Shown: positions 1-61,535 of the stretch, in pieces
Layout of the letters: every line of letters starts with the position of its first letter
Position numbering within the stretch: the stretch's first letter is position 1
Source of the DNA: Escherichia coli
GTDB lineage: Bacteria; Pseudomonadota; Gammaproteobacteria; Enterobacterales; Enterobacteriaceae
Direction: 5' to 3' (one strand)
Assembly (NCBI RefSeq): GCF_044324785.1
Contig: NZ_CP172127.1
DNA length: 64,000 nucleotides
The notes under the pieces: model-generated
Told to the model about the DNA's origin: nothing
What the model saw: the letters and a program-made list of their open reading frames with translations, nothing else
Databases searched by the model: none
Program-made: the position numbers and the translations under genes

Positions 1-2301
1 ATGGCCGTTAAAGCCTCCGGGCGTTTTGTCCCTCCGTCAGCATTTGCCGCAGGCACCGGTAAGGCGTTTACCGGTGCTTATGCATGGAACGCGCCACGCG
101 AGGCTGTCGGGCGCGAAAGACCCCTTACACGTGACGAGATGCGTCAGGTGCAAGGTGTTTTATCCACGATTAACCGCCTGCCTTACTTTTTGCGCTCGCT
201 GTTTACTTCACGCTATGACTACATCCGGCGCAATAAAAGCCCGGTGCACGGGTTTTATTTCCTCACATCCACTTTTCAGCGTCGTTTATGGCCGCGCATT
301 GAGCGTGTGAATCAGCGCCATGAAATGAACACCGACGCGTCGTTGCTGTTTCTGGCAGAGCGTGACCACTATGCGCGCCTGCCGGGAATGAATGACAAGG
401 AGCTGAAAAAGTTTGCTGCCCGTATCTCATCGCAGCTTTTCATGATGTATGAGGAACTCTGCGATGCCTGGGTGGATGCGCATGGCGAAAAAGAATCGCT
501 GTTTACGGATGAGGCGCAGGCACATCTGTATGGTCATGTTGCTGGCGCTGCACGTGCTTTCAATATTTCCCCGCTTTACTGGAAAAAATACCGTAAAGGG
601 CAGATGACCACGAGGCAGGCATATTCTGCCATTGCCCGCCTGTTTAACGATGAGTGGTGGACTCATCAGCTTAAAGGCCAGCGTATGCGCTGGCATGAGG
701 CGTTACTGATTGCTGTCGGGGAGGTCAATAAAGACCGTTCTCCTTATGCCAGTAAACATGCCATTCGTGATGTGCGTGCGCGCCGCCAGGCAAATCTGGA
801 ATTTCTTAAATCGTGTGACCTTGAAAACAAGGAAACCGGCGAGCGCATCGACCTTATCAGTAAGGTGATGGGCAGTATTTCTAATCCAGAAATTCGCCGG
901 ATGGAGCTGATGAACACCATCGCCGGTATTGAGCGTTACGCCGCCGCAGAGGGTGATGTAGGGATGTTTATCACGCTGACCGCGCCGTCAAAGTATCACC
1001 CGACACGTCAGGTCAGAAAAGGCGAAAGTAAAACCGTCCAGCTAAATCACGGCTGGAACGATGAGGCATTTAATCCAAAGGATGCGCAGCGTTATCTCTG
1101 CCGTATCTGGAGCCTGATGCGCACGGCATTCAAGGATAATGATTTACAGGCCTACGGTTTGCGTGTTGTTGAACCACACCACGACGGAACGCCGCACTGG
1201 CATATGATGCTTTTTTGTAATCCACGCCAGCGTAACCAGATTATTGAAATCATGCGTCGCTACGCGCTCAAAGAGGATGGCGACGAAAGAGGAGCTGCGC
1301 GAAACCGTTTTCAGGCAAAACACCTTAACCGGGGCGGTGCTGCGGGATATATCGCGAAATACATCTCAAAAAACATCGACGGCTATGCACTGGATGGTCA
1401 GCTCGATAATGATACCGGTAGACCGCTGAAAGACACAGCTGCGGCTGTTACCGCATGGGCGTCAACGTGGCGCATTCCGCAATTTAAAACGGTTGGTCTG
1501 CCGACAATGGGGGCTTACCGTGAACTACGCAAATTGCCTCGCGGCGTCAGCATTGCTGATGAGTTTGACGAGCGCGTCGAGGCTGCACGCGCCGCTGCAG
1601 ACAGTGGTGATTTTGCGTTGTATATCAGCGCGCAGGGCGGGGCAAATGTCCCGCGCGATTGCCAGACTGTCAGGGTCGCCCGTAGCCCGTCGGATGACGT
1701 TAACGAGTACGAGGAAGAAGTCGAGAGAGTGGTCGGCATTTACGCGCCGCATCTCGGCGCGCGTCATATTCATATCACCAGAACGACGGACTGGCGCATT
1801 GTTCCGAAAGTGCCGGTCGTTGAGCCTTTGACTTTAAAAAGCGGCATCGCCGCGCCTCGGAGTCCTGTCAATAACTGTGGAAAGCTCACCGGTGGTGATA
1901 CTTCGTTACCGGCTCCCACACCTTCTGAGCACGCCGCAGCAGTGCTTAATCTGGTTGATGACGGTGTTATTGAATGGAATGAACCGGAGGTCGTGAGGGC
2001 GCTCAGGGGCGCATTAAAACACGGCCTGAGAAGACCAAACCGTCAGCAAAGAAACGGAAGCCCGTTAAAACCGCATGAAATAGCGCCATCGGCCAGACTG
2101 ACCCGGTCGGAACGAATGCAAATTACCCGTATCCGCGTTGACCTTGCTCAGAACGGTATCAGGCCACAGCGATGGGAGCTTGAGGCGCTGGCGCGTGGTG
2201 CGATGGTGATATTCGATGATAAAAAATATAAGTATGTGGCAAGTAATGTCGATGAGTGGCAGGGTTTTAGTAATGAGTACTTCAGCAAAGAGCTCAAGTA
2301 A
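1..2301 (+). CDS. A: P2 gpA rolling-circle replication initiator (HUH endonuclease)
   Basis: 766-aa ORF starting MAVKASGRFVPPSAFAAGTGK, near identical to remembered P2 A. It has the HUH-like HHDGTPHWHMM and the tyrosine motif GYIAKYISKN. The last ~30 aa diverge and are AT-rich. Confidence 0.95.
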   Translation: MAVKASGRFVPPSAFAAGTGKAFTGAYAWNAPREAVGRERPLTRDEMRQVQGVLSTINRLPYFLRSLFTSRYDYIRRNKSPVHGFYFLTSTFQRRLWPRIERVNQRHEMNTDASLLFLAERDHYARLPGMNDKELKKFAARISSQLFMMYEELCDAWVDAHGEKESLFTDEAQAHLYGHVAGAARAFNISPLYWKKYRKGQMTTRQAYSAIARLFNDEWWTHQLKGQRMRWHEALLIAVGEVNKDRSPYASKHAIRDVRARRQANLEFLKSCDLENKETGERIDLISKVMGSISNPEIRRMELMNTIAGIERYAAAEGDVGMFITLTAPSKYHPTRQVRKGESKTVQLNHGWNDEAFNPKDAQRYLCRIWSLMRTAFKDNDLQAYGLRVVEPHHDGTPHWHMMLFCNPRQRNQIIEIMRRYALKEDGDERGAARNRFQAKHLNRGGAAGYIAKYISKNIDGYALDGQLDNDTGRPLKDTAAAVTAWASTWRIPQFKTVGLPTMGAYRELRKLPRGVSIADEFDERVEAARAAADSGDFALYISAQGGANVPRDCQTVRVARSPSDDVNEYEEEVERVVGIYAPHLGARHIHITRTTDWRIVPKVPVVEPLTLKSGIAAPRSPVNNCGKLTGGDTSLPAPTPSEHAAAVLNLVDDGVIEWNEPEVVRALRGALKHGLRRPNRQQRNGSPLKPHEIAPSARLTRSERMQITRIRVDLAQNGIRPQRWELEALARGAMVIFDDKKYKYVASNVDEWQGFSNEYFSKELK

Positions 2302-2351
2302 TGGTAGAATTAAATATTGTTGTCTAAATATACATATATGGTTAACTGAAC

Positions 2352-3503
2352 ATGAATGTGGTTGATTTATACTCAGGGGTAGGTGGTTTAAGCTTGGGAG
2401 CATCACGGGCAGGCTTTAACTTGGTTGGTGCCGTTGAGTTGGATAAGCATGCAATATTTTCCCATGCTCTTAATTTCCCAAATTCAACACATTTACATAA
2501 AGATGTTAGCAAACTTTCTGCTCATGATATTCTAACAGCTTGTAATGTTAGTAATATTGATTGTGTCATCGGTGGACCACCTTGTCAGGGATTTAGTACA
2601 ATTGGTAAAGGGATGGCTAATGACGTCAGAAATGAATTGTATATTCATTTTTTTAGGTTGGTGAGCGAGTTATCACCTGTTTGTTTCTTGGCAGAGAATG
2701 TTCCTGGGATAATGAATGAAAAATATGATGCAGTTAGAGAAAAAGCATTCTCATTAGTAAAAGACCGATATGTAATATTGAGCCCAATAAAAGTGAATGC
2801 GTCTAATTATGGAGCTCCTACAACTAGAACTAGGATTTTTTTTATCGGATTCAAAAAGGAATTAGCTAATTGTTTAAAAGAATCTGATTTCTTTCCTGTG
2901 CAAGATATTGAGCAAACCTTAGTTAAAGATGCTTTATACGGTATTCCTCGTGTTATAAGAAAAGAATGGCAGCAAGAGGAACAAGGCTGGCGTGAAGTTA
3001 AGATGGATAGGCAAGGATATTTTTTTGATAGACTTTGGAGTAATGTTCCGAATAATGTTGGTGATCCGGAATCTTTAGAAAAATTAAAAAAAGGGTTGGT
3101 CTCCGGTTTCTTGGGAACAATACATACAGATGAGGTTATTAATAGATATAAAAAACTCTCTTTTGGCGAAACTGATAAAATTTCACGATCTCAGAGGTTA
3201 AATCCAAATGGTTTCTGTCCGACGCTAAGGGCTGGAACTGGCAGCGATAAGGGCAGTTATCAAGCAGTTAGGCCGATCCATCCAACGCAGGCTAGAGTTA
3301 TTACTCCACGTGAGGCTGCTCGATTACAAGGTTTTCCTGATTGGTTTAGGTTTCACCCTACTAAGTGGCATAGTTTCAGGCAAATCGGTAATAGCGTTAG
3401 CCCATTAGTAGCTGAAGCTATGCTATTACCGTTATATAAATTATGTCAGTTTTCTAAAGAAGAACTTTCGAATACCACGGAATTACTTTGTAATACTCAA
3501 TAA
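2352..3503 (+). CDS. DNA (cytosine-5)-methyltransferase (Dcm-like)
   Basis: Motif I DLYSGVGG, motif IV GGPPCQGFS, motif VI ENV, motif VIII TRTRIFFIG, motif IX/X RVITPREAARLQGFP and GNSVSPLVAEAM. AT-rich cargo DNA. Confidence 0.9.
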   Translation: MNVVDLYSGVGGLSLGASRAGFNLVGAVELDKHAIFSHALNFPNSTHLHKDVSKLSAHDILTACNVSNIDCVIGGPPCQGFSTIGKGMANDVRNELYIHFFRLVSELSPVCFLAENVPGIMNEKYDAVREKAFSLVKDRYVILSPIKVNASNYGAPTTRTRIFFIGFKKELANCLKESDFFPVQDIEQTLVKDALYGIPRVIRKEWQQEEQGWREVKMDRQGYFFDRLWSNVPNNVGDPESLEKLKKGLVSGFLGTIHTDEVINRYKKLSFGETDKISRSQRLNPNGFCPTLRAGTGSDKGSYQAVRPIHPTQARVITPREAARLQGFPDWFRFHPTKWHSFRQIGNSVSPLVAEAMLLPLYKLCQFSKEELSNTTELLCNTQ

Positions 3504-3915
3504 AGTTTTTAAGGTTACTATTAGCCTCGGCTTCATCATCTCCAATGTAAAAGCCGAGGTCGTTGGTAATTTCTTCATGGTCTTTTGTAGGAAGTCGTTC
3601 CTCAATAAAGATTCTCTCACGTAAAGACATCGTGGGAACACTAATGTTTTTGACGGTGCCCCAGTCTCCAGAATAAAAGGGCCAAAAATTAATTCGAGAA
3701 TTTTGAAGGAAGCTATCTAATTGCATATCACTGTTTTCGAGAACAATGGCAGTAAAGGTAAGCATTTGCTGACCATCTTTGTAAATAAAATTACATAAAG
3801 GATGGATCATTATATCTGGTCTACCTGTTAATCCAATACTTATGGCACGTTGAGCTGCTTTTATTAAAAGGTGTGGGTACCTTTTAAAAGTGACATCATC
3901 AACAGTTAGATTCAC
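3454..3915 (-). CDS. Hypothetical protein (153 aa), probably the C-terminal part of a frameshift fusion with the upstream ORF
   Basis: GTG start with no Shine-Dalgarno. Its frame is open back to just upstream of the A7 tract at 3948-3954. There is a GTGA overlap with the upstream ORF. The 3' end overlaps the methyltransferase gene by 50 nt. Confidence 0.55.
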   Translation of the reverse strand: MNLTVDDVTFKRYPHLLIKAAQRAISIGLTGRPDIMIHPLCNFIYKDGQQMLTFTAIVLENSDMQLDSFLQNSRINFWPFYSGDWGTVKNISVPTMSLRERIFIEERLPTKDHEEITNDLGFYIGDDEAEANSNLKNFIEYYKVIPWYSKVLL

Positions 3916-4445
3916 TGGGCAATAATCTTGAGTAAGTAAAGATTGTATTTTTTTAATCGAAAACGCCTAGGGTCTCTTTCTTGAAAATCTCTTCCTAAAG
4001 TTTCAGGAGTTGCATTTAAAGTTATTTTAAATATATCTTTTGGCTTTAACTTACTTACCAATTGAGCAATGTCATTCATTTGCTCATATATTTGGCTTGG
4101 TATGGCATAGTCAAGCCAAATTAGAGAAGGTGCAGCGAAGTCGCTTTGAGTAATAAATTCACTGCTACTTAAAGGTTCTTCTCCTAAATCAATACATGAT
4201 ATAGGTTTGTTAAATTTTTGTCGTTTATGAACGTTAGCATCTACCTCTAGAGAGATCATGTTATTGATTTTTAAAGCATTATGCAGTTGTTTGAAGTCTT
4301 CTAGAAAAGGGCCACCAAACCCGATATAAACATAATCGGATATGTTTACATAGTTGTTGAGTTTTCTGAGCAACTCAATGAATAGATTTCTTTCGACAGC
4401 TTTGTGTTGTCGAAGATGATAAGGAATACTTCCCCCAGTACTCAT
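3912..4445 (-). CDS. Hypothetical protein (177 aa) with a Rossmann/class-I-methyltransferase-like N-terminal pattern
   Basis: ATG preceded by GAGAGGG and an ATGA overlap with the GHKL ATPase stop. The pattern YVYIGFGGPF ... MISLEVD ... SLIWLDY resembles beta1-Gly loop / beta2-acidic / beta4-Asp of class I MTase folds (weak inference). Confidence 0.6.
   Translation of the reverse strand: MSTGGSIPYHLRQHKAVERNLFIELLRKLNNYVNISDYVYIGFGGPFLEDFKQLHNALKINNMISLEVDANVHKRQKFNKPISCIDLGEEPLSSSEFITQSDFAAPSLIWLDYAIPSQIYEQMNDIAQLVSKLKPKDIFKITLNATPETLGRDFQERDPRRFRLKKYNLYLLKIIAQ
3948..3954 (-). other. A_AAA_AAA slippery heptamer (candidate -1 frameshift site or homopolymer indel) joining the 177-aa and 153-aa ORFs
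   Basis: The minus strand reads cga tta aaa aaa tac in the 177-aa frame, so the seven A residues sit in exact X_XXY_YYZ register. The -1 frame is open from 5 codons upstream and runs into the 153-aa ORF. A weak hairpin AATCTT-N9-AAGATT (3924-3944) starts 3 nt downstream. Confidence 0.5.
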
Positions 4446-5908
4446 TTTTTTGCCCTCTCTAAAAAATCTTCAAAGCAATAATTACCAATTTCTGTCGGAG
4501 GAACAGAATCATCATCGAAAATGAAAGTGGCAACAGTTTTTATCTCACTCAATCTTCTACTAAATTTTATTTGCTTTAAAGGGTCTGTTTCTTTAGGTAT
4601 TGGCAATGTTGGTTTGAAACTATTCCCACCAATGGATCTATGCACCCGAGACCATTTATCTTCAGGTACTATGCTATCTAGTTTGTCGTTTGTAAGAGGA
4701 ATTGTTTTAGATGTGGAACTAAACATTTGCTGGCGTTCTGGAGAGTTACTTTTCCATCTGTTAGTAAAATCTGTAAATATTTTCAAGCCTTCACGCATGA
4801 AATCTTTAGTAGCCAAATAGATATCAGAATTACCATCAATGCCTCTCTTGGTAGTAGTAATAGGTAATTTTTCAGCTTCATTAGATGTAAAAATAGCTAC
4901 GCCTGCAATTCCAACAAATTGTGTGTGATATTGTGGAACTCCTGCTTCACCCCATCCGGTAAGACGTGTCTTGTCCGCATGAACAACAACACGATCATTG
5001 CAGATAATAGTCCATCCGGCTTTCTCGGAAGTGTTACGTCCAGTAAGGAATGAATTTTCCTCATCTTCTGTCACAAAATCTCTATAGAATCCAACTGCGA
5101 TCTTTATTGAAACTCCATTAGTTTCACCTCTGTAAAAATAAGGCGTGATACCACCTTTTTTCGCTGACACAAGAGCTTCGGTATCGATAATTAATGATGT
5201 CAGATTTGGCTTGACTTCTATATCATTAATATAGACCTTGAAACCTTTATTAAGAATTAGGCTATAATGGTTTGAAACAGAATTGATTAATTTTTGTTGA
5301 AAATCACGATCAACTTTGAAATGGTTTTTTACATCGTCTCTGAGATCGTTAACTATAATTTTTACGCCCGTTGTTTTTAAATCGACATTACCACGTTCGA
5401 GATCTAGTTTCCAGTTTTTATCATTGGATAACCATTCTGGAGAAATTGTAACTTTAAATTCCTCGTCTTTTGTTTTACTTAATACTTGCGATGAAGTGCC
5501 CAACTTAAAAATAGCTCGCTTCATACCTATCCCATAAACACCAATGGTTGGGATATTATCTATGTCTCTTTCATTTGGTCTTCCCATTCGGAAAGCATAG
5601 CTTGTTGCTAAGCTTCCCGAAATTCCGCCACAATTATCTTCAATTGTAAAACCATCTTCATTAAAATTTATTTTTGAGTAAAAACCGTGGTATTTATTTT
5701 CTTCGTTTATTTCTTCATTCGATGATGAAATGGAACGAAGAGCGCCATCAAGACAGTTGTCTAATAAGTCAAGAATAGCATCTTGGAGTTCGATATCCCT
5801 GGTTAACATTTCTACAAAGAAACGTTTTGCAGGAAAAGCTTCGATGATATCGTTTGCCATAGTTATTTTAGTTCCATCTGTGTGATTACTTATAGATATG
5901 TTTACCAT
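4442..5908 (-). CDS. GHKL (Bergerat-fold, HATPase_c_3 / MutL-MORC-like) ATPase, 488 aa
   Basis: N box AILDLLDNCLDGA, G1 box EDNCGGIS, G2 box IGVYGIGMKRA. A long C-terminal region is compatible with a transducer domain. No nuclease motif recognised. Confidence 0.8.
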   Translation of the reverse strand: MVNISISNHTDGTKITMANDIIEAFPAKRFFVEMLTRDIELQDAILDLLDNCLDGALRSISSSNEEINEENKYHGFYSKINFNEDGFTIEDNCGGISGSLATSYAFRMGRPNERDIDNIPTIGVYGIGMKRAIFKLGTSSQVLSKTKDEEFKVTISPEWLSNDKNWKLDLERGNVDLKTTGVKIIVNDLRDDVKNHFKVDRDFQQKLINSVSNHYSLILNKGFKVYINDIEVKPNLTSLIIDTEALVSAKKGGITPYFYRGETNGVSIKIAVGFYRDFVTEDEENSFLTGRNTSEKAGWTIICNDRVVVHADKTRLTGWGEAGVPQYHTQFVGIAGVAIFTSNEAEKLPITTTKRGIDGNSDIYLATKDFMREGLKIFTDFTNRWKSNSPERQQMFSSTSKTIPLTNDKLDSIVPEDKWSRVHRSIGGNSFKPTLPIPKETDPLKQIKFSRRLSEIKTVATFIFDDDSVPPTEIGNYCFEDFLERAKK

Positions 5909-6136
5909 AAAACAAGGTACAGATCATCGATGTTTAGCACAACATCTTGAGAGTTTCTTGGTAGCATGAGGGGGATTATGCCGCTTATTTTATGATTTTC
6001 AGCTTTGTGCTAATGCATCTAACTGGTGCATGAGTTTGCATTCGCTTTTATTTCAAAGCATGTGGGGGCGTGCTAGTGTTGGTAGAGCTCTGATTTCCTG
6101 ATGCAACTGCATTAAAACCGCCCCATGAAGCGGGCG

Positions 6137-6155
6137 GGCGAGGCGGGGAAAGCAC
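6137..6155 (+). other. cos: P2 cos site (19-nt cohesive end sequence)
   Basis: GGCGAGGCGGGGAAAGCAC matches the remembered P2 cohesive end. It sits between the cargo and gene Q, as in P2. Confidence 0.8.
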
Positions 6156-6297
6156 TGCGCGCTGGCGGTGGTGCTGATTTTATTTTTTCAGCGTCTCAGC
6201 GCGTCGTGACGGCGCTTAGTCTGCCCGTTGAGGCGTTGGTGTGTCTGCGGGGTGTTTTGTGCGGTGGTGAGCGTGTGAGGGCGTGATGACGGGGTGT

Positions 6298-6324: not shown

Positions 6325-7359
6325 TCAGCCGTTGTCAGTGTCCAGTGAGTAGTTTTTAAATCGGATGACCTCCTGACCGAGCCAGCCGTTTATCTCGCGG
6401 ATCCTGTCCTGTAACGGGATAAGCTCATTGCGGACAAAGACCTTTGCCACTTTCTCAATATCACCCAGCGACCCGACGTTCTCCGGCTTGCCGCCCATCA
6501 ACTGAAAGGGGATGCGGTGCGCGTCCAGCAGGTCTGCGGCGCTGGCTTTTTTGATATTAAAAAAATCGTCTTTCGTCGCCACTTCACTGAGCGGGATAAT
6601 TTTAATGCCGTCGGCTTTTCCCTGCGGGGCGTAGAGAAACAGATTTTTAAAGTTGTTGCGGCCTTTCGACTTCACCATGTTTTCGCGGAGCATTTCGATA
6701 TCGTTGCGATCCTGCACGGCGTCGGTGACGTACATGATGTATCCGGCATGTGCGCCGTTTTCGTAATACTTGCGGCGGAACAGCGTGGCCGACTCATTCA
6801 GCCAGGCAGAGTTAAGGGCGCTGAGATATTCCGGCAGGCCGTACAGCTCCTGATTGATATCCGGCTCCAGCAGGTGAAATACGGAGCCGGGCGCGAAGGC
6901 TGTCGGTTCGTTGAAGGACGGCACCCACCAGTAAACATCCTCTTCCACCCCACGGCGGGTATATTTTGCCGGTGAGGTTTCCAGTCTGATGACCTTACCG
7001 GTGGTGCTGTAACGCTTTTCCAGAAACGCATTGCCGAACACCAGAAAATCCAGCACAAAGCGGCTGAAATCCTGCTGGGAAAGCCACGGATGCGGGATAA
7101 ATGTCGAGGCCAGAATATTGCGTTTGACGTAAATCGGTGAGCTGTGATGCACGGCAGCACGCAGACTTTTTGCCAGCCCGGTAAAGCTGACCGGCGGCTC
7201 ATACCATCTGCCGTTACTGATGCATTCGACGTAATCCAGAATGTCACGGCGGTCGAGTACCGGCACCGGCTCGCCAAAGGTGAATGCCTCCATTTTCGGG
7301 GCGCTGGCAGTCATTTTTTTTGCCGCAGGTTGCGGTGTTTTCCCTTTTTTCTTGCTCAT
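6325..7359 (-). CDS. Q: Portal protein gpQ
   Basis: 344 aa, MSKKKGKTPQPAAKKM..., matches remembered P2 Q in position and orientation. Confidence 0.93.
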   Translation of the reverse strand: MSKKKGKTPQPAAKKMTASAPKMEAFTFGEPVPVLDRRDILDYVECISNGRWYEPPVSFTGLAKSLRAAVHHSSPIYVKRNILASTFIPHPWLSQQDFSRFVLDFLVFGNAFLEKRYSTTGKVIRLETSPAKYTRRGVEEDVYWWVPSFNEPTAFAPGSVFHLLEPDINQELYGLPEYLSALNSAWLNESATLFRRKYYENGAHAGYIMYVTDAVQDRNDIEMLRENMVKSKGRNNFKNLFLYAPQGKADGIKIIPLSEVATKDDFFNIKKASAADLLDAHRIPFQLMGGKPENVGSLGDIEKVAKVFVRNELIPLQDRIREINGWLGQEVIRFKNYSLDTDNG

Positions 7360-15569: not shown

Positions 15570-16131
15570 AGAGGTTTATGAGTGATTTTTATTTGATGCT
15601 TTGTATTCTAAAACCTTCTTATTGGCGTAAAAGAATTTTGTATATGACAGGAATATAACCAGACCTGAAGTGAAATAGACGAGGGATAGTATTAATAATG
15701 CTTTTTTGTGACTGTTATTATCTTTAATCTCCTGGCTTAACCATTCGGAGTCCTCCTCGTTTAGCTGTAAGAGCTTATTGCAGGCGATCTCAGGAAGTGT
15801 GTCTTTTATAAATACGTTTTGCAGTCTCTTGCAATCGGCAAGGCTATAAGTTTTATTAAATTCAACTGCTTTATTTTTGAAGGATAAAAGAACTTTGTCA
15901 CTATAAACATAGTACATCATGTTTTTATATGGTATGCCTATGGCATCCCTTACTATAACGGATTGTACGTTGTGTATGTAACATGCGAGGAGAATGTAAA
16001 AAATACTGGCCAGAATTACAATTATTGTTTTAATTATGTGTAGACTGGCCCCCTGAATCTCCAGACAACCAATATCACTTAAATAAGTGATAGTCTTAAT
16101 ACTAGTTTTTAGACTAGTCATTGGAGAGCAG

Positions 16132-16497
16132 ATGATTGATGTCTTAGGACCGGAGAAACGCAGACGGCGTACTACACAGGAAAAGATCGCTATTGTTCAG
16201 CAGAGTTTTGAACCGGGAATGACGGTCTCCCTTGTTGCCCGGCAACACGGTGTGGCAGCCAGCCAGTTATTTCTCTGGCGCAAGCAATACCAGGAGGGAA
16301 GTCTTACTGCTGTGGCCGCAGGAGAGCAGGTCGTTCCTGCCTCTGAACTTGCTGCTGCCATGAAGCAGATTAAAGAACTCCAGCGCCTGCTCGGCAAAAA
16401 AACGATGGAAAATGAACTCCTTAAAGAAGCCGTTGAATACGGGCGTGCAAAAAAGTGGATAGCGCACGCGCCCTTATTGCCCGGGGATGGGGAGTAA
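16132..16497 (+). CDS. insC: IS2 transposase OrfA (InsC)
   Basis: [29 protein letters not shown]... The A_AAA_AAG frameshift heptamer lies at 16449-16455 in the zero frame. Confidence 0.9.
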
Positions 16498-17360
16498 GCT
16501 TAGTCAGCCGTTGTCTCCGGGTGTCGCGTGCGCAGTTGCACGTAATTCTCAGACGAACCGATGACTGGAAAGATGGTCGCCGCAGCCGTCACTCAGATGA
16601 TACGGATGTGCTTCTCCGTATACACCATGTTATCGGAGAGCTGCCCACGTATGGTTATCGTCGGGTATGGGCGCTGCTTCGCAGACAGGCCGAACTTGAT
16701 GGTATGCCTGCGATCAATGCCAAACGTGTTTACCGGATCATGCGCCAGAATGCGCTGTTGCTTGAGCGAAAAACCGCTGTACCGCCATCGAAACGGGCAC
16801 ATACTGGCAAAGTGGCCGTGAAAGAAAGCAATCAACGATGGTGCTCTGACGGGTTCGAGTTCCGCTGTGATAACGGAGAAAAACTGCGAGTCACGTTCGC
16901 GCTGGACTGCTGTGACCGTGAGGCACTGCACTGGGCAGTCACTACGGGCGGCTTCGACAGTGAAACAGTACAGGACGTAATGCTGGGAGCGGTGGAACGC
17001 CGCTTCGGCAACGAGCTTCCGGCGTCTCCAGTAGAGTGGCTGACGGATAATGGTTCATGCTACCGGGCTAATGAAACACGGCAGTTTGCCCGGATGTTGG
17101 GGCTTGAACCGAAGAACACGGCGGTGCGGAGTCCGGAGAGTAACGGCATAGCAGAGAGCTTCGTGAAAACGATAAAGCGTGACTACATCAGTATCATGCC
17201 TAAACCAGACGGGTTAACGGCAGCAAAGAACCTTGCAGAGGCGTTCGAGCATTATAACGAATGGCATCCGCATAGTGCACTGGGTTATCGCTCGCCACGG
17301 GAATATCTGCGGCAGCAGGCCAGTAATGGGTTAAGTGATAACAGGTGTCTGGAAATATAG
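16455..17360 (+). CDS. insD: IS2 transposase OrfB (InsD, DDE integrase domain), expressed as an OrfAB fusion by -1 frameshift
   Basis: 301-aa ORF in the -1 frame relative to insC, with a typical IS3-family rve domain sequence. Confidence 0.9.
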
Positions 17361-17780
17361 GGGCAAATCCAATGTGTGGTGGTTTTGTTATGTCACCCCA
17401 GATGCGAGTAAGAAAAAAATACGATGTTTTTAGTTTTCCATCAATCAGTCCCTGCTGTATCATTCTCACATTTTCAATGCCTGATACATTGATTCCGTTA
17501 ATTATTTTAAATAGTTGAATGTCGCGCCACTCGCGGTCAAGTCTTTTTAATTTTTTGTCTGAATATCCAAAATTGAAATAATGTGCAATAAGCCTCATAA
17601 GGTTACTTTTACCAAAGCTAAAAAATGCTAATACTGCAAAGCTACAAAGGAAAAAAACGATTAGCCCCCACACATTAGTCACATTATAGCTGACCATTAC
17701 GCTCTCCTTGAATGTTGTCTGGTAGTTCTACAAATGAATCCAGATAGCATAACTTTTATATATTGTGCAATCTCACATGC

Positions 17781-26049: not shown

Positions 26050-26325
26050 ATGAACAAAGAAAATGTGATTACCCTGGACAATCCGGTCAAGCGTGGTGAG
26101 CAGGTTATCGAACAGGTCACGCTGATGAAACCCAATGCCGGGACGCTGCGCGGTGTCAGTCTGGCTGCGGTCGCGAACTCCGAAGTCGATGCACTGATTA
26201 AAGTGCTGCCGCGCATGACGGCACCGATGCTGACCGAACAGGAGGTCGCCGCGCTGGAACTGCCTGACCTTGTGGCGCTGGCCGGTAAGGTGGTCGGTTT
26301 TTTGTCGCCGAACTCGGTGCAGTGA
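26050..26325 (+). CDS. E: Tail assembly chaperone gpE
   Basis: 91 aa, upstream of the tape measure gene. Confidence 0.9.
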   Translation: MNKENVITLDNPVKRGEQVIEQVTLMKPNAGTLRGVSLAAVANSEVDALIKVLPRMTAPMLTEQEVAALELPDLVALAGKVVGFLSPNSVQ

Positions 26326-61230: not shown

Positions 61231-61535
61231 TTTTCCGCTCCTGAACAAGTTCTTTATAGCGTCGTTTGGCTAAATCAATATCCGATTGACTGGTAGTCTG
61301 TGTTTTCTTTTGAAAACAATGCAATACGTAAACCGCTTCTTCAAATTTTGCGACATACATGACGCGATAGATCCCATCAGCATCGCGAGTACGAATCTCT
61401 CGCACACCAGGGCCGATAGTTGAAAAAGGTTTCCAGTCGTATGGGTTTAACCCTTGTTGGATCCTGTCGAGACGATTCTGGAAATGCGCGTAAATCGTCA
61501 AGACTGGTATCAAGAAAAGCCAGCTTTTTTCTCAT
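61220..61535 (-). pseudogene. RelE/ParE-superfamily (HigB / phage Gp49-like) toxin gene, apparently frame-disrupted near 61480
   Basis: The conserved C-terminal core GPGVREIRTRDADGIYRVMYVAKFEEAVYVLHCFQKKTQ is in a frame that starts only at a TTG (61513) with no RBS. The ATG at 61535 has a GGAG RBS and a TATAAT box (61550-61555) and encodes the family-typical MRKKLAFLDTSLDDLRAFPE, but in a different frame that stops after 52 codons. Confidence 0.65.

Follow-up and report, generated by a model that had tools for sequence, protein, structure and literature searches.

Two small open reading frames (ORFs) of 177 and 153 aa meet at a run of seven adenines in an Escherichia coli prophage. The locus raises the question whether this run is a programmed −1 frameshift site or a fresh homopolymer lesion, the two readings offered by the preliminary description. 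We followed it up in the window, the whole 64,000-nt stretch of DNA that was analysed. Given the alleles and orthologues compared here, it is very probable that the locus is a fresh, recurrent A8→A7 frameshift pseudogene in a prophage Methyltransf_35 gene, and not a programmed frameshift.

The A7 run, the two reading frames and their cassette

The minus strand around the run reads CGT TTT CGA TTA AAA AAA TAC, placing the A7 run as an in-register A_AAA_AAA in the frame of the 177-aa ORF. The −1 frame (TAG GCG TTT TCG ATT AAA AAA ATA CAA) is closed by a TAG four codons 5′ of the first AAA and is open thereafter into the 153-aa ORF. The parts of the locus are as follows.

3454..4445, minus strand: whole frameshifted Methyltransf_35 gene (pseudogene); matched end to end by PF20553 and a single CDS in EC77 and EC05
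3912..4445, minus strand: 5′ fragment, the 177-aa ORF; its exact product was found on 7 contigs only
3454..3915, minus strand: mechanical 153-aa ORF, which covers the gene's 3′ portion in the −1 frame, from the ORF list and alignment
3948..3954, minus strand: A7 homopolymer run, A8 in intact alleles by allele comparison; here a single deleted base throws the gene out of frame

A GAGGG-type Shine-Dalgarno sequence precedes the 177-aa ORF, whose start overlaps the GHKL gene as ATGA. Of its product, residues 1–166 belong to the authentic protein; 11 out-of-frame residues (YNLYLLKIIAQ) and a TGA come next. The 153-aa ORF has a GTG without a Shine-Dalgarno sequence, in a GTGA overlap with the stop of the 177-aa ORF. 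This GTG “start” is the internal codon Val178 of the intact protein, a Val/Ile position within the conserved protein in the alignment, and authentic coding in this frame starts inside the A-run at about 3948. Direct reading thus confirmed the heptamer, the frame boundaries and the difference in Shine-Dalgarno sequences as first described. A −1 shift at the A7 run yields ...RRFRLKKIQSLLTQDYCPVNLTVDDV..., in total 330 aa, in agreement with the single protein of about 330 aa predicted from a −1 slip or an extra A; the junction peptide of the restored full-length protein is ...FRLKKIQSLLTQDYCPVNLTVDDVTFK. Restoring the A to 3454..4445 gives 993 nt and a 330-aa protein identical to WP_021517197.1.

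The proposal that the two ORFs form one functional unit was borne out by an end-to-end profile match and by a single-domain structural model spanning the break. The restored protein matches Pfam PF20553 (Methyltransf_35) over residues 3–328 of 330 and profile positions 2–307 of 309, with an E-value of 1.5e-84 and 284.5 bits against a cut-off of 27, above the gathering threshold. Its AlphaFold model (pLDDT 89, pTM 0.87) has a Rossmann-like alpha/beta fold with a C-terminal beta-hairpin, as in class-I SAM-dependent methyltransferases. In this model, the frame break falls inside a helix of the class-I methyltransferase-like domain, with four strands N-terminal and the beta-hairpin (212–237) C-terminal to it. 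Alignment of 32 homologues revealed no variation in the stretch F43-G44-G45-P46-F47-L48-E49-D50, in E67 or in D112, a pattern that would fit SAM binding by a putative methyltransferase. The name “O-methyltransferase” attached to the Methyltransf_35 protein is a database label only. That one gene for a 330-aa class-I methyltransferase-like protein has been split into the 177-aa and 153-aa ORFs is fully supported.

The gene lies between two other genes, in a slot bounded by P2-type phage genes.

4442..5908, minus strand: GHKL (HATPase_c_3, E 1e-09) ATPase gene, intact; its stop overlaps the start of the Methyltransf_35 gene as ATGA
2352..3503, plus strand: C-5 cytosine DNA methyltransferase (Dcm-type) gene, intact and convergent (PF00145, E 8.6e-58; TIGR00675)
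1..2301, plus strand: P2-type replication endonuclease gene (gpA; PF05840 Phage_GPA), one boundary of the cargo slot
6325..7359, minus strand: P2-type portal gene (PF04860 Phage_portal), the other boundary of the cargo slot

The RefSeq (PGAP) product of the GHKL gene is 472 aa from a downstream start, and the 3′ ends of the Dcm and Methyltransf_35 genes overlap by 50 nt. A GHKL homologue is present in all 80 genome loci compared and is the upstream partner of the Methyltransf_35 gene in 78 of them, as in 22/22 phage loci. Dcm is found in 68/80 genome loci, and all three genes in every one of the 22 phage loci. By this neighbourhood, the Methyltransf_35 gene is the obligate partner downstream of a GHKL ATPase gene in a three-gene GHKL/Methyltransf_35/Dcm cargo cassette of a P2-like prophage. 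The cassette shows the linkage expected of a GHKL/paraMORC restriction-modification (RM)-like system, a GHKL ATPase domain and a DNA methyltransferase in a conserved neighbourhood. Pfam found no nuclease domain in the cassette. Neither PADLOC nor NCBIfam matched the GHKL or Methyltransf_35 protein, save for a sub-threshold MzaB hit (E 0.0084), and PDB sequence searches and blastn against deposited phages gave no match by which to name the cassette. No paper on Methyltransf_35 or the GHKL-Methyltransf_35-Dcm combination was found in the literature searched. We infer a putative defence function of the cassette solely from its location in the P2 cargo slot.

A8 and A7 alleles

In EC77 and EC05, the gene is one 993-nt CDS encoding WP_021517197.1. 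Across the ~3.9 kb of window 2301–6190, an extra A is the sole difference common to both; the closest relatives thus carry A8 where the window has A7, as expected of the fresh homopolymer lesion first suggested. The common E. coli allele encodes Leu-Lys-Lys-Ile by TTA AAA AAA ATA, which makes the A8 run. A7 occurs in the window and in contigs L003–L009, and an otherwise identical A8 in L001, L002, L010 and L011. Intact 330-aa alleles were found on 224 + 115 + 56 + 9 + 6 + 2 + 1 contigs (>400), the first figure being the exact restored protein, against 7 contigs with the 177-aa product, so that the OFF (A7) state represents ~1% of occurrences. Only the tract lengths A8 and A7 were seen; four predicted A9 and A6 products were absent from the collection by exact-sequence look-up, which could miss them in other backgrounds. 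One E. coli allele (P0008) has an interrupted run (RLEKIQ), with no sign of cost.

Three A7 lineages are clean, namely window/L005, L004/L007 and L006/L008; the second member of each pair may duplicate the first at the level of reads. The contigs L004/L007 and L006/L008 carry A7 on diverged P2 backbones with flanks ~98.5% identical. In all three lineages, GHKL and Dcm are intact and the Methyltransf_35 gene has no further change, so that the lesions are recent. The window/L005 and L004/L007 haplotypes have otherwise identical A8 counterparts in L001/L002/L010 and L011, respectively. Clean A7 on at least two haplotypes with such counterparts indicates that the deletion arose more than once, with two or more independent events in E. 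coli prophages; a recurrent OFF allele also fits a contingency (phase-variable) tract.

The isolate might truly carry A8 and the run have been under-called in assembly, as long-read assemblies often under-call homopolymers. Two of the A7 records show exactly such under-calling: in L003 (CP164475.1) each of the region's three 8-runs is called as 7, and in L009 (ERR10474457) four additional homopolymer deletions occur. Long-read artefacts thus account for some public A7 records, and we discounted L003 and L009 rather than take all seven A7 contigs as independent support. In the window, however, the neighbouring 8-runs at 2836–2843 and 7314–7321 are intact, and comparison with 23.7 kb of EC77, the nearest prophage, shows no indel other than the A7 run. 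In the chromosomal part, strain N3 differs by 1 nt at seven places, and each time it is N3 that lacks the base; N3 has three annotated frameshifted genes in the same stretch. No other homopolymer indel attributable to the window was found against EC77 and N3. The separately assembled L005 has the identical A7 and is 100% identical to the window across 10.4 kb, but it may share its isolate with the window and so perhaps gives no independent support for the base call. A7 also occurs in clean draft and Logan contigs of other lineages. By these comparisons the A7 lesion in the window looks real, and an assembly error is unlikely.

Orthologues beyond the E. coli allele are single ORFs as well. The best 120 of 355 homologues are nearly all 322–336 aa, with a coverage of 99–100%. 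Among the IMG/VR phage loci, 21/22 are intact and L030 is broken elsewhere; 19 of the 22 were translated, all as single 330-aa ORFs, and two more gave one full-length tblastn match. In genomes across many phyla, 77/80 loci are uninterrupted, and the other three end at contig edges. Lys165-Lys166 varies among the aligned homologues (RLGKL, RLQRI, RYQKI, RAEEA and others), and in the 17 translated orthologous loci other than the E. coli allele, the A-run at this position never exceeds 6. The two-frame arrangement was not found in EC77/EC05, the phage loci or the 80 genome loci. Orthologues thus encode one fused ORF and keep neither the A7 run nor the two-frame layout. The other reading first offered, a programmed −1 frameshift, does not survive this comparison, given that the orthologues checked are uninterrupted, the run is not conserved and the closest relatives differ by A8 only.

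Recoding signals, chance and switching

A programmed event at A_AAA_AAA, whether −1 ribosomal frameshifting or transcriptional slippage, would produce the 177-aa product and the 330-aa fusion by design. The in-register heptamer, the −1 frame open from just 5′ of the run only, a slip product that is exactly the conserved full-length protein and a small downstream hairpin all speak for it, and some IS elements make use of sites of the A_AAA_AAA type (PMC4066793). Two −1 sites cited for comparison are indeed present in the window, a genuine IS2 A_AAA_AAG site at 16449 and a T_TTT_TTG at 26298. As for a stimulator, we required a stable downstream structure at ~5–9 nt or an upstream Shine-Dalgarno-like sequence.

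3924..3944, minus strand: small AT-rich hairpin, 3 nt 3′ of the run, from folding; unchanged in intact A8 alleles

The hairpin (AATCTT-N9-AAGATT; a 6-bp AT-rich stem and a 9-nt loop) exists at 3 nt from the heptamer as first described, but its fold is indistinguishable from that of shuffled sequence. The 61-nt region has an MFE of −4.3 kcal/mol with z = −0.39, and 58/200 shuffles fold at least equally well. It is also the same in A8 alleles, where no shift is needed, and is not credible as a frameshift stimulator. Upstream, nothing Shine-Dalgarno-like was found beyond an AGG triplet 11 nt 5′ of the run. Heptamers without a stimulator in E. coli give 2.1–10 times a background of ~0.055%, i.e., ~0.1–0.5% (PMC4066793). 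Moreover, the two-frame layout occurs on just a few E. coli contigs while A8 with a single ORF occurs on more than 400, phage and genome orthologues are single ORFs, and neither the run nor the Lys-Lys codons are conserved. On these comparative grounds, and with no stimulator found, we rejected programmed frameshifting as exceedingly improbable.

The base composition of the cassette bears on how far such a run can be expected by chance. The cassette has 36% GC against 51.7% for the window and holds 6/17 of the window's homopolymer runs of at least 7. AAA accounts for 19/21 Lys codons in the Methyltransf_35 gene; when its synonymous codons are shuffled, 82% of the shuffles have an A/T run of at least 7 and 42% one of at least 8. 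In-register X_XXY_YYZ heptamers occur 6–7 times in each of the three cassette genes. Owing to this frequency, an in-register heptamer with a two-frame layout is not evidence for programmed frameshifting in AT-rich cargo DNA.

Homopolymer-driven switching is known in other bacteria for phase-variable restriction-modification genes. By analogy, the A8 run could be a contingency tract, kept for reversible slippage between A8 and A7 that would turn the GHKL/Methyltransf_35 module ON or OFF within the population. The recurrence of the same OFF allele on different haplotypes (at least two times) and the location in a prophage cargo slot adjoining a DNA methyltransferase gene are in its favour. Yet the tract is short for a contingency locus, is absent from orthologues, is interrupted in P0008 without sign of cost and has the length expected by chance from AAA-rich codon usage, as seen in the 42% of synonymous shuffles with a run of at least 8. 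The OFF state is confined to ~1% of occurrences, and exact look-up found no A9 or A6 product. A contingency locus is marked by length polymorphism in both directions and a conserved tract; here only A8 and A7 were found. A tract maintained for switching is therefore very unlikely. It is likewise decidedly unlikely that A8 acts as a functional switch, in which A7 would turn GHKL/Methyltransf_35 off while Dcm stays on, incidental −1 or transcriptional slippage on the in-register A7 would leave a trace of authentic protein, much as with a savior indel, and reversion to A8 would restore the module fully. Turning the module off could, for example, escape cost or autoimmunity. If true, an uncharacterised RM-like system carried by an E. 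coli prophage would have ON, OFF and low states set by a homopolymer.

We thus favour a frameshift pseudogene. One A of the A8 run was lost in this strain, most probably by slipped-strand mispairing in replication, and the deletion recurs because the run is a mutational hot spot. As a result of the lost base, the ribosome leaves the authentic frame after Lys166 and terminates 11 codons on. A −1 slip, or an extra A added in transcription, would rebuild exactly the wild-type protein. Since A7 is in register and a slip restores this protein, a trace of full-length product may be made, expected at well under 1% for an unstimulated heptamer from the literature on other constructs. The A7 allele would be at most slightly leaky, and such leakiness would be incidental and not an evolved recoding signal.

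The A7 lesion is a textbook homopolymer frameshift in a gene already annotated as intact by RefSeq in sister strains. Annotation should merge the 177-aa and 153-aa ORFs into a single frameshifted pseudogene, in place of two protein entries or a recoding site. Of greater interest than the run is the GHKL/Methyltransf_35/Dcm cassette, linked across many phyla, carried in a P2 cargo slot and uncharacterised. For its middle gene, the natural A7 mutants could provide ready-made knock-outs.

Comparison with known systems

The cassette resembles the paraMORC/GHKL RM-like operons (Iyer, Abhiman and Aravind 2008, PMC2292703) in the tight linkage of a GHKL ATPase to a cytosine DNA methyltransferase on mobile DNA; it differs in its invariable partner, a Methyltransf_35 protein and not a helicase or an evident nuclease. 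With phase-variable RM or methyltransferase genes, the locus shares a repeat tract in a gene of a methyltransferase cassette and the presence of ON and OFF alleles in the species. In contrast to those, the A8 here is short, unconserved and explained by codon usage, and the OFF state is rare with one length variant.

The A_AAA_AAG sites of the IS2/IS3 family and dnaX are likewise in-register lysine-codon heptamers with overlapping frames and a functional fusion. There, however, layout and heptamer are conserved in all members and accompanied by stimulators (a pseudoknot or stem-loop, or an upstream Shine-Dalgarno-like element), whereas here we see a rare variant of a single-ORF gene with no significant structure. 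The low-level frameshifting on savior indels, reviewed for G-run mutants of herpes simplex thymidine kinase (PMC5009743), is alike in that a homopolymer indel inactivates the gene and slippage on the run could restore a trace of product. For the thymidine kinase, trace activity is demonstrated and selectively important; at A7, a trace product and a benefit from it are hypothetical.

Finally, the locus agrees with homopolymer frameshift pseudogenes in the loss of one base from a mononucleotide run of an otherwise conserved ORF, in the predominance of the intact allele, in recurrence at one run and in the untouched neighbouring genes. Nothing substantive sets it apart from them; the shortened run here happens to be an in-register slippery heptamer.

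An interrupted Methyltransf_35 gene

The two small ORFs lie between the GHKL ATPase and Dcm genes of a cassette bounded by P2-type genes, and they meet at a homopolymer run.

1-2301: P2-type gpA gene, one boundary of the cassette
2352-3503: Dcm, convergent C5 DNA methyltransferase gene, with a 50-nt 3' overlap with the Methyltransf_35 gene
3454-4445: Methyltransf_35 gene, middle member of the cassette
3948-3954, minus strand: A7 homopolymer run, read from the sequence, an in-register A_AAA_AAA in the frame of the 177-aa ORF
4442-5908: GHKL ATPase gene, with an ATGA overlap with the Methyltransf_35 gene
6325-7359: P2-type portal gene, the other boundary of the cassette

Around the run, the minus strand reads ...CGT TTT CGA TTA AAA AAA TAC AAT... 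in the frame of the 177-aa ORF and ...CCC TAG GCG TTT TCG ATT AAA AAA ATA C... in the -1 frame, which is closed by a TAG four codons upstream of the run and thereafter open through the 153-aa ORF (3454-3915). The preliminary description, in which the heptamer joins the two ORFs and a -1 slip or an extra A gives a single product of about 330 aa, agrees with the sequence: one added A or a -1 shift yields a 330-aa protein (...RRFRLKKIQSLLTQDYCPV...) by translation. Sequence inspection also confirmed a good Shine-Dalgarno sequence for the 177-aa ORF, none for the 153-aa ORF, and the described AATCTT-N9-AAGATT hairpin. The A7 gene product consists of 166 authentic N-terminal residues and 11 missense residues. 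The frameshift itself creates the GTGA stop/start overlap of the 177-aa ORF onto the 153-aa ORF (3912-3915).

Residues 3-328 of the fused translation match Pfam family PF20553 (Methyltransf_35; E 1.5e-84), and AlphaFold, run with 32 homologues, models the protein confidently as one domain (pLDDT 89.1, pTM 0.87). In this model, strands 39-43, 62-66, 107-112 and 138-144 are all N-terminal to the break, which is located within helix 160-175; beyond it lie the long beta-hairpin at 212-237 and a helical C-terminal region. Given the end-to-end family match and the single-domain model, the earlier proposal that a fold begun in the first ORF is completed in the second was right. The two ORFs are one gene, and "O-methyltransferase" is a mere database name for its product.

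Comparison of intact and split alleles

A programmed -1 frameshift would fit the in-register heptamer and the 330-aa product of a -1 shift. However, the sole complete RefSeq E. coli genomes that have the locus, EC77 and EC05, each carry one annotated 993-nt CDS (WP_021517197.1), and the only difference from window 2301-6190 common to both is an extra A (A8 against A7). A large protein collection has the exact 330-aa protein on 224 contigs, near-identical 330-aa alleles on 115, 56, 9, 6, 2 and 1 contigs, and the exact 177-aa product on seven. Among homologues (best 120 of 355; identity down to about 45%), nearly all have a length of 322-336 aa and 99%-100% query coverage. Furthermore, the gene is intact in 21 of 22 IMG/VR phage loci (19 translated as single 330-aa ORFs, two more by one full-length match) and uninterrupted in 77 of 80 species-representative genomes covering Proteobacteria, Cyanobacteria, Bacteroidota, Chloroflexota, Acidobacteriota and others; contig ends cut the remaining three. 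Homologues vary at the two lysines encoded by the run (RLGKL, RLQRI, RLEKL, RYQKI, RAEEA and so on), and outside the E. coli allele the A-run at the site is at most six long in the 17 orthologous loci translated. Orthologue alignment, the check proposed in the preliminary description, thus revealed single uninterrupted ORFs and no kept run. This comparative evidence decides the question: the suggested programmed frameshift is not borne out, and its alternative, a fresh homopolymer lesion, is what the A8 run of the closest relatives points to.

The local signal is not special either. The 61-nt hairpin region has a folding energy of -4.3 kcal/mol (z = -0.39), which 58 of 200 shuffled sequences match or better. 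Its stem comprises six AT-rich pairs just 3 nt from the heptamer and is unchanged in A8 alleles, for which no shift is needed; we thus rejected the hairpin as a frameshift stimulator. In-register X_XXY_YYZ heptamers number six or seven in each of the three cassette genes, with additional A_AAA_AAA and T_TTT_TTT sites among them. The GC content is 36% in the cassette against 51.7% in the window, and 6 of the window's 17 runs of at least seven fall within the cassette. In the Methyltransf_35 gene, AAA makes up 19 of 21 Lys codons, and an A/T run of at least eight arises in 42% of synonymous-codon shuffles; the A-run may be present only because of this AAA-rich codon usage. Programmed recoding was rejected on the comparative data, and we regard it as extremely unlikely.

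Sharma et al. 2014 (PMC4066793) reported that stimulator-less heptamers in E. coli shift at 2.1-10 times a background of about 0.055%; they also noted a depletion of AAAAAAA in every frame of E. coli genes and linked it to slippage during transcription and to indel mutation. Efficient RNA-polymerase slippage has been described for runs of nine (PMC5009743). With no special signal and such low published rates, leaky -1 or transcriptional slippage should restore full-length protein from the A7 allele to a trace at most. The GTGA overlap could permit some reinitiation of the 153-aa piece; nothing indicates that the two protein halves reassemble. Devoid of the C-terminal half of the fold, the truncated product would be non-functional.

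Authenticity and recurrence of the deletion

If the isolate were truly A8, the split would be an assembly artefact. This is unlikely, as the A7 run is the sole indel in 23.7 kb aligned to EC77, the two other nearby 8-runs (dcm, 2836-2843; portal gene, 7314-7321) keep their full length in the window, and all seven 1-nt differences between the chromosomal part and strain N3 are bases absent from N3, in which yegL, asmA and yegH are annotated as frameshifted in the compared stretch. Among the seven other A7 contigs compared, L005 matches the window over 10.4 kb with 100% identity, and L004/L007 and L006/L008 are clean A7 contigs whose P2-like backbones differ from the window by about 1.5% and have other genes beside gpA.

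The N3 comparison set window 39001-64000 against L033 (NZ_CP031609.1); several of the seven differences lie in G/C runs. This chromosomal part shows at most 98.3% identity to any complete RefSeq E. coli, and near 61461 the window lacks one 23-nt direct-repeat unit.

Two contigs were left out of the count of A7 support. In L003 (CP164475.1), each of the three 8-runs (matching 2836-2843, 3948-3954 and 7314-7321) has only seven bases, so that dcm, the methyltransferase-like gene and the portal gene all appear "broken", and L009 (ERR10474457) shows four additional homopolymer deletions. In both, under-calling in long reads is the apparent cause; therefore, public records that show these genes as "frameshifted" probably include artefacts.

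The A7 run occurs on three cassette haplotypes. Because two of them each have an otherwise identical A8 counterpart (L001/L002/L010 for window/L005, and L011 for L004/L007), the deletion is, judged from these sequences, the outcome of at least two events. The lesions are recent, since the three clean A7 lineages (window/L005, L004/L007 and L006/L008) retain intact GHKL and Dcm genes and an otherwise unchanged Methyltransf_35 gene. Functional phase variation at the A-run would predict A9 and A6 products, but exact look-ups of the protein collection found neither; we regard it as very improbable. The run is one base shorter within a conserved single-domain gene, a loss that slipped-strand mispairing most likely caused. 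We thus conclude that the split is very probably an ordinary, recurrent homopolymer frameshift producing a pseudogene of an already annotated gene.

There are other independent inactivating lesions of this gene. Phage locus L030 (5309-5320) is frameshifted near residues 103-107, away from the A7 site, and in E. coli assembly HEK73 (P0007/P0009) the gene is broken after residue ~134 and continues on a second contig; foreign residues flank the break on both sides, suggesting an insertion.

The surrounding cassette

The A-run itself is of low interest; the so far uncharacterised cassette is a side observation. In phage P2, this slot between the gpA and portal genes holds tin and old. The conserved cassette (window 2352-5908, also L010-L031 and L034-L113) is present with all three genes in 22 of 22 IMG/VR phage loci; recognisable portal and gpA genes border it in 21. 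Across the 80 genome loci, a GHKL homologue is always detectable and directly upstream in 78, and Dcm lies within 4 kb in 68. The ATGA stop/start overlap (4442-4445) is conserved, suggesting translational coupling of the GHKL and Methyltransf_35 genes, and the 50-nt overlap with dcm (3454-3503) is the same in the 20 phage loci that have this layout, hinting at constrained co-evolution or antisense interplay.

Elsewhere in the prophage, an IS2 copy absent from EC77 (16042-17371; orfA/orfB, A_AAA_AAG at 16449, 5-bp ATGTG target duplication) interrupts a hypothetical 261-aa gene (WP_021517190.1 in EC77) between the virion morphogenesis and baseplate V genes, a second inactivated cargo gene.

The GHKL and Methyltransf_35 proteins matched no PADLOC or NCBIfam model above threshold and had no relative in the PDB by sequence; the cassette matched no deposited phage, and a search of the accessible literature for the Methyltransf_35 family or accessions found no paper. 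The cassette is a candidate RM-like or defence system with no evident nuclease. The closest parallel in print is with the paraMORC/GHKL restriction-modification neighbourhoods described by Iyer et al. 2008 (PMC2292703), to which we liken it at the level of the gene neighbourhood.
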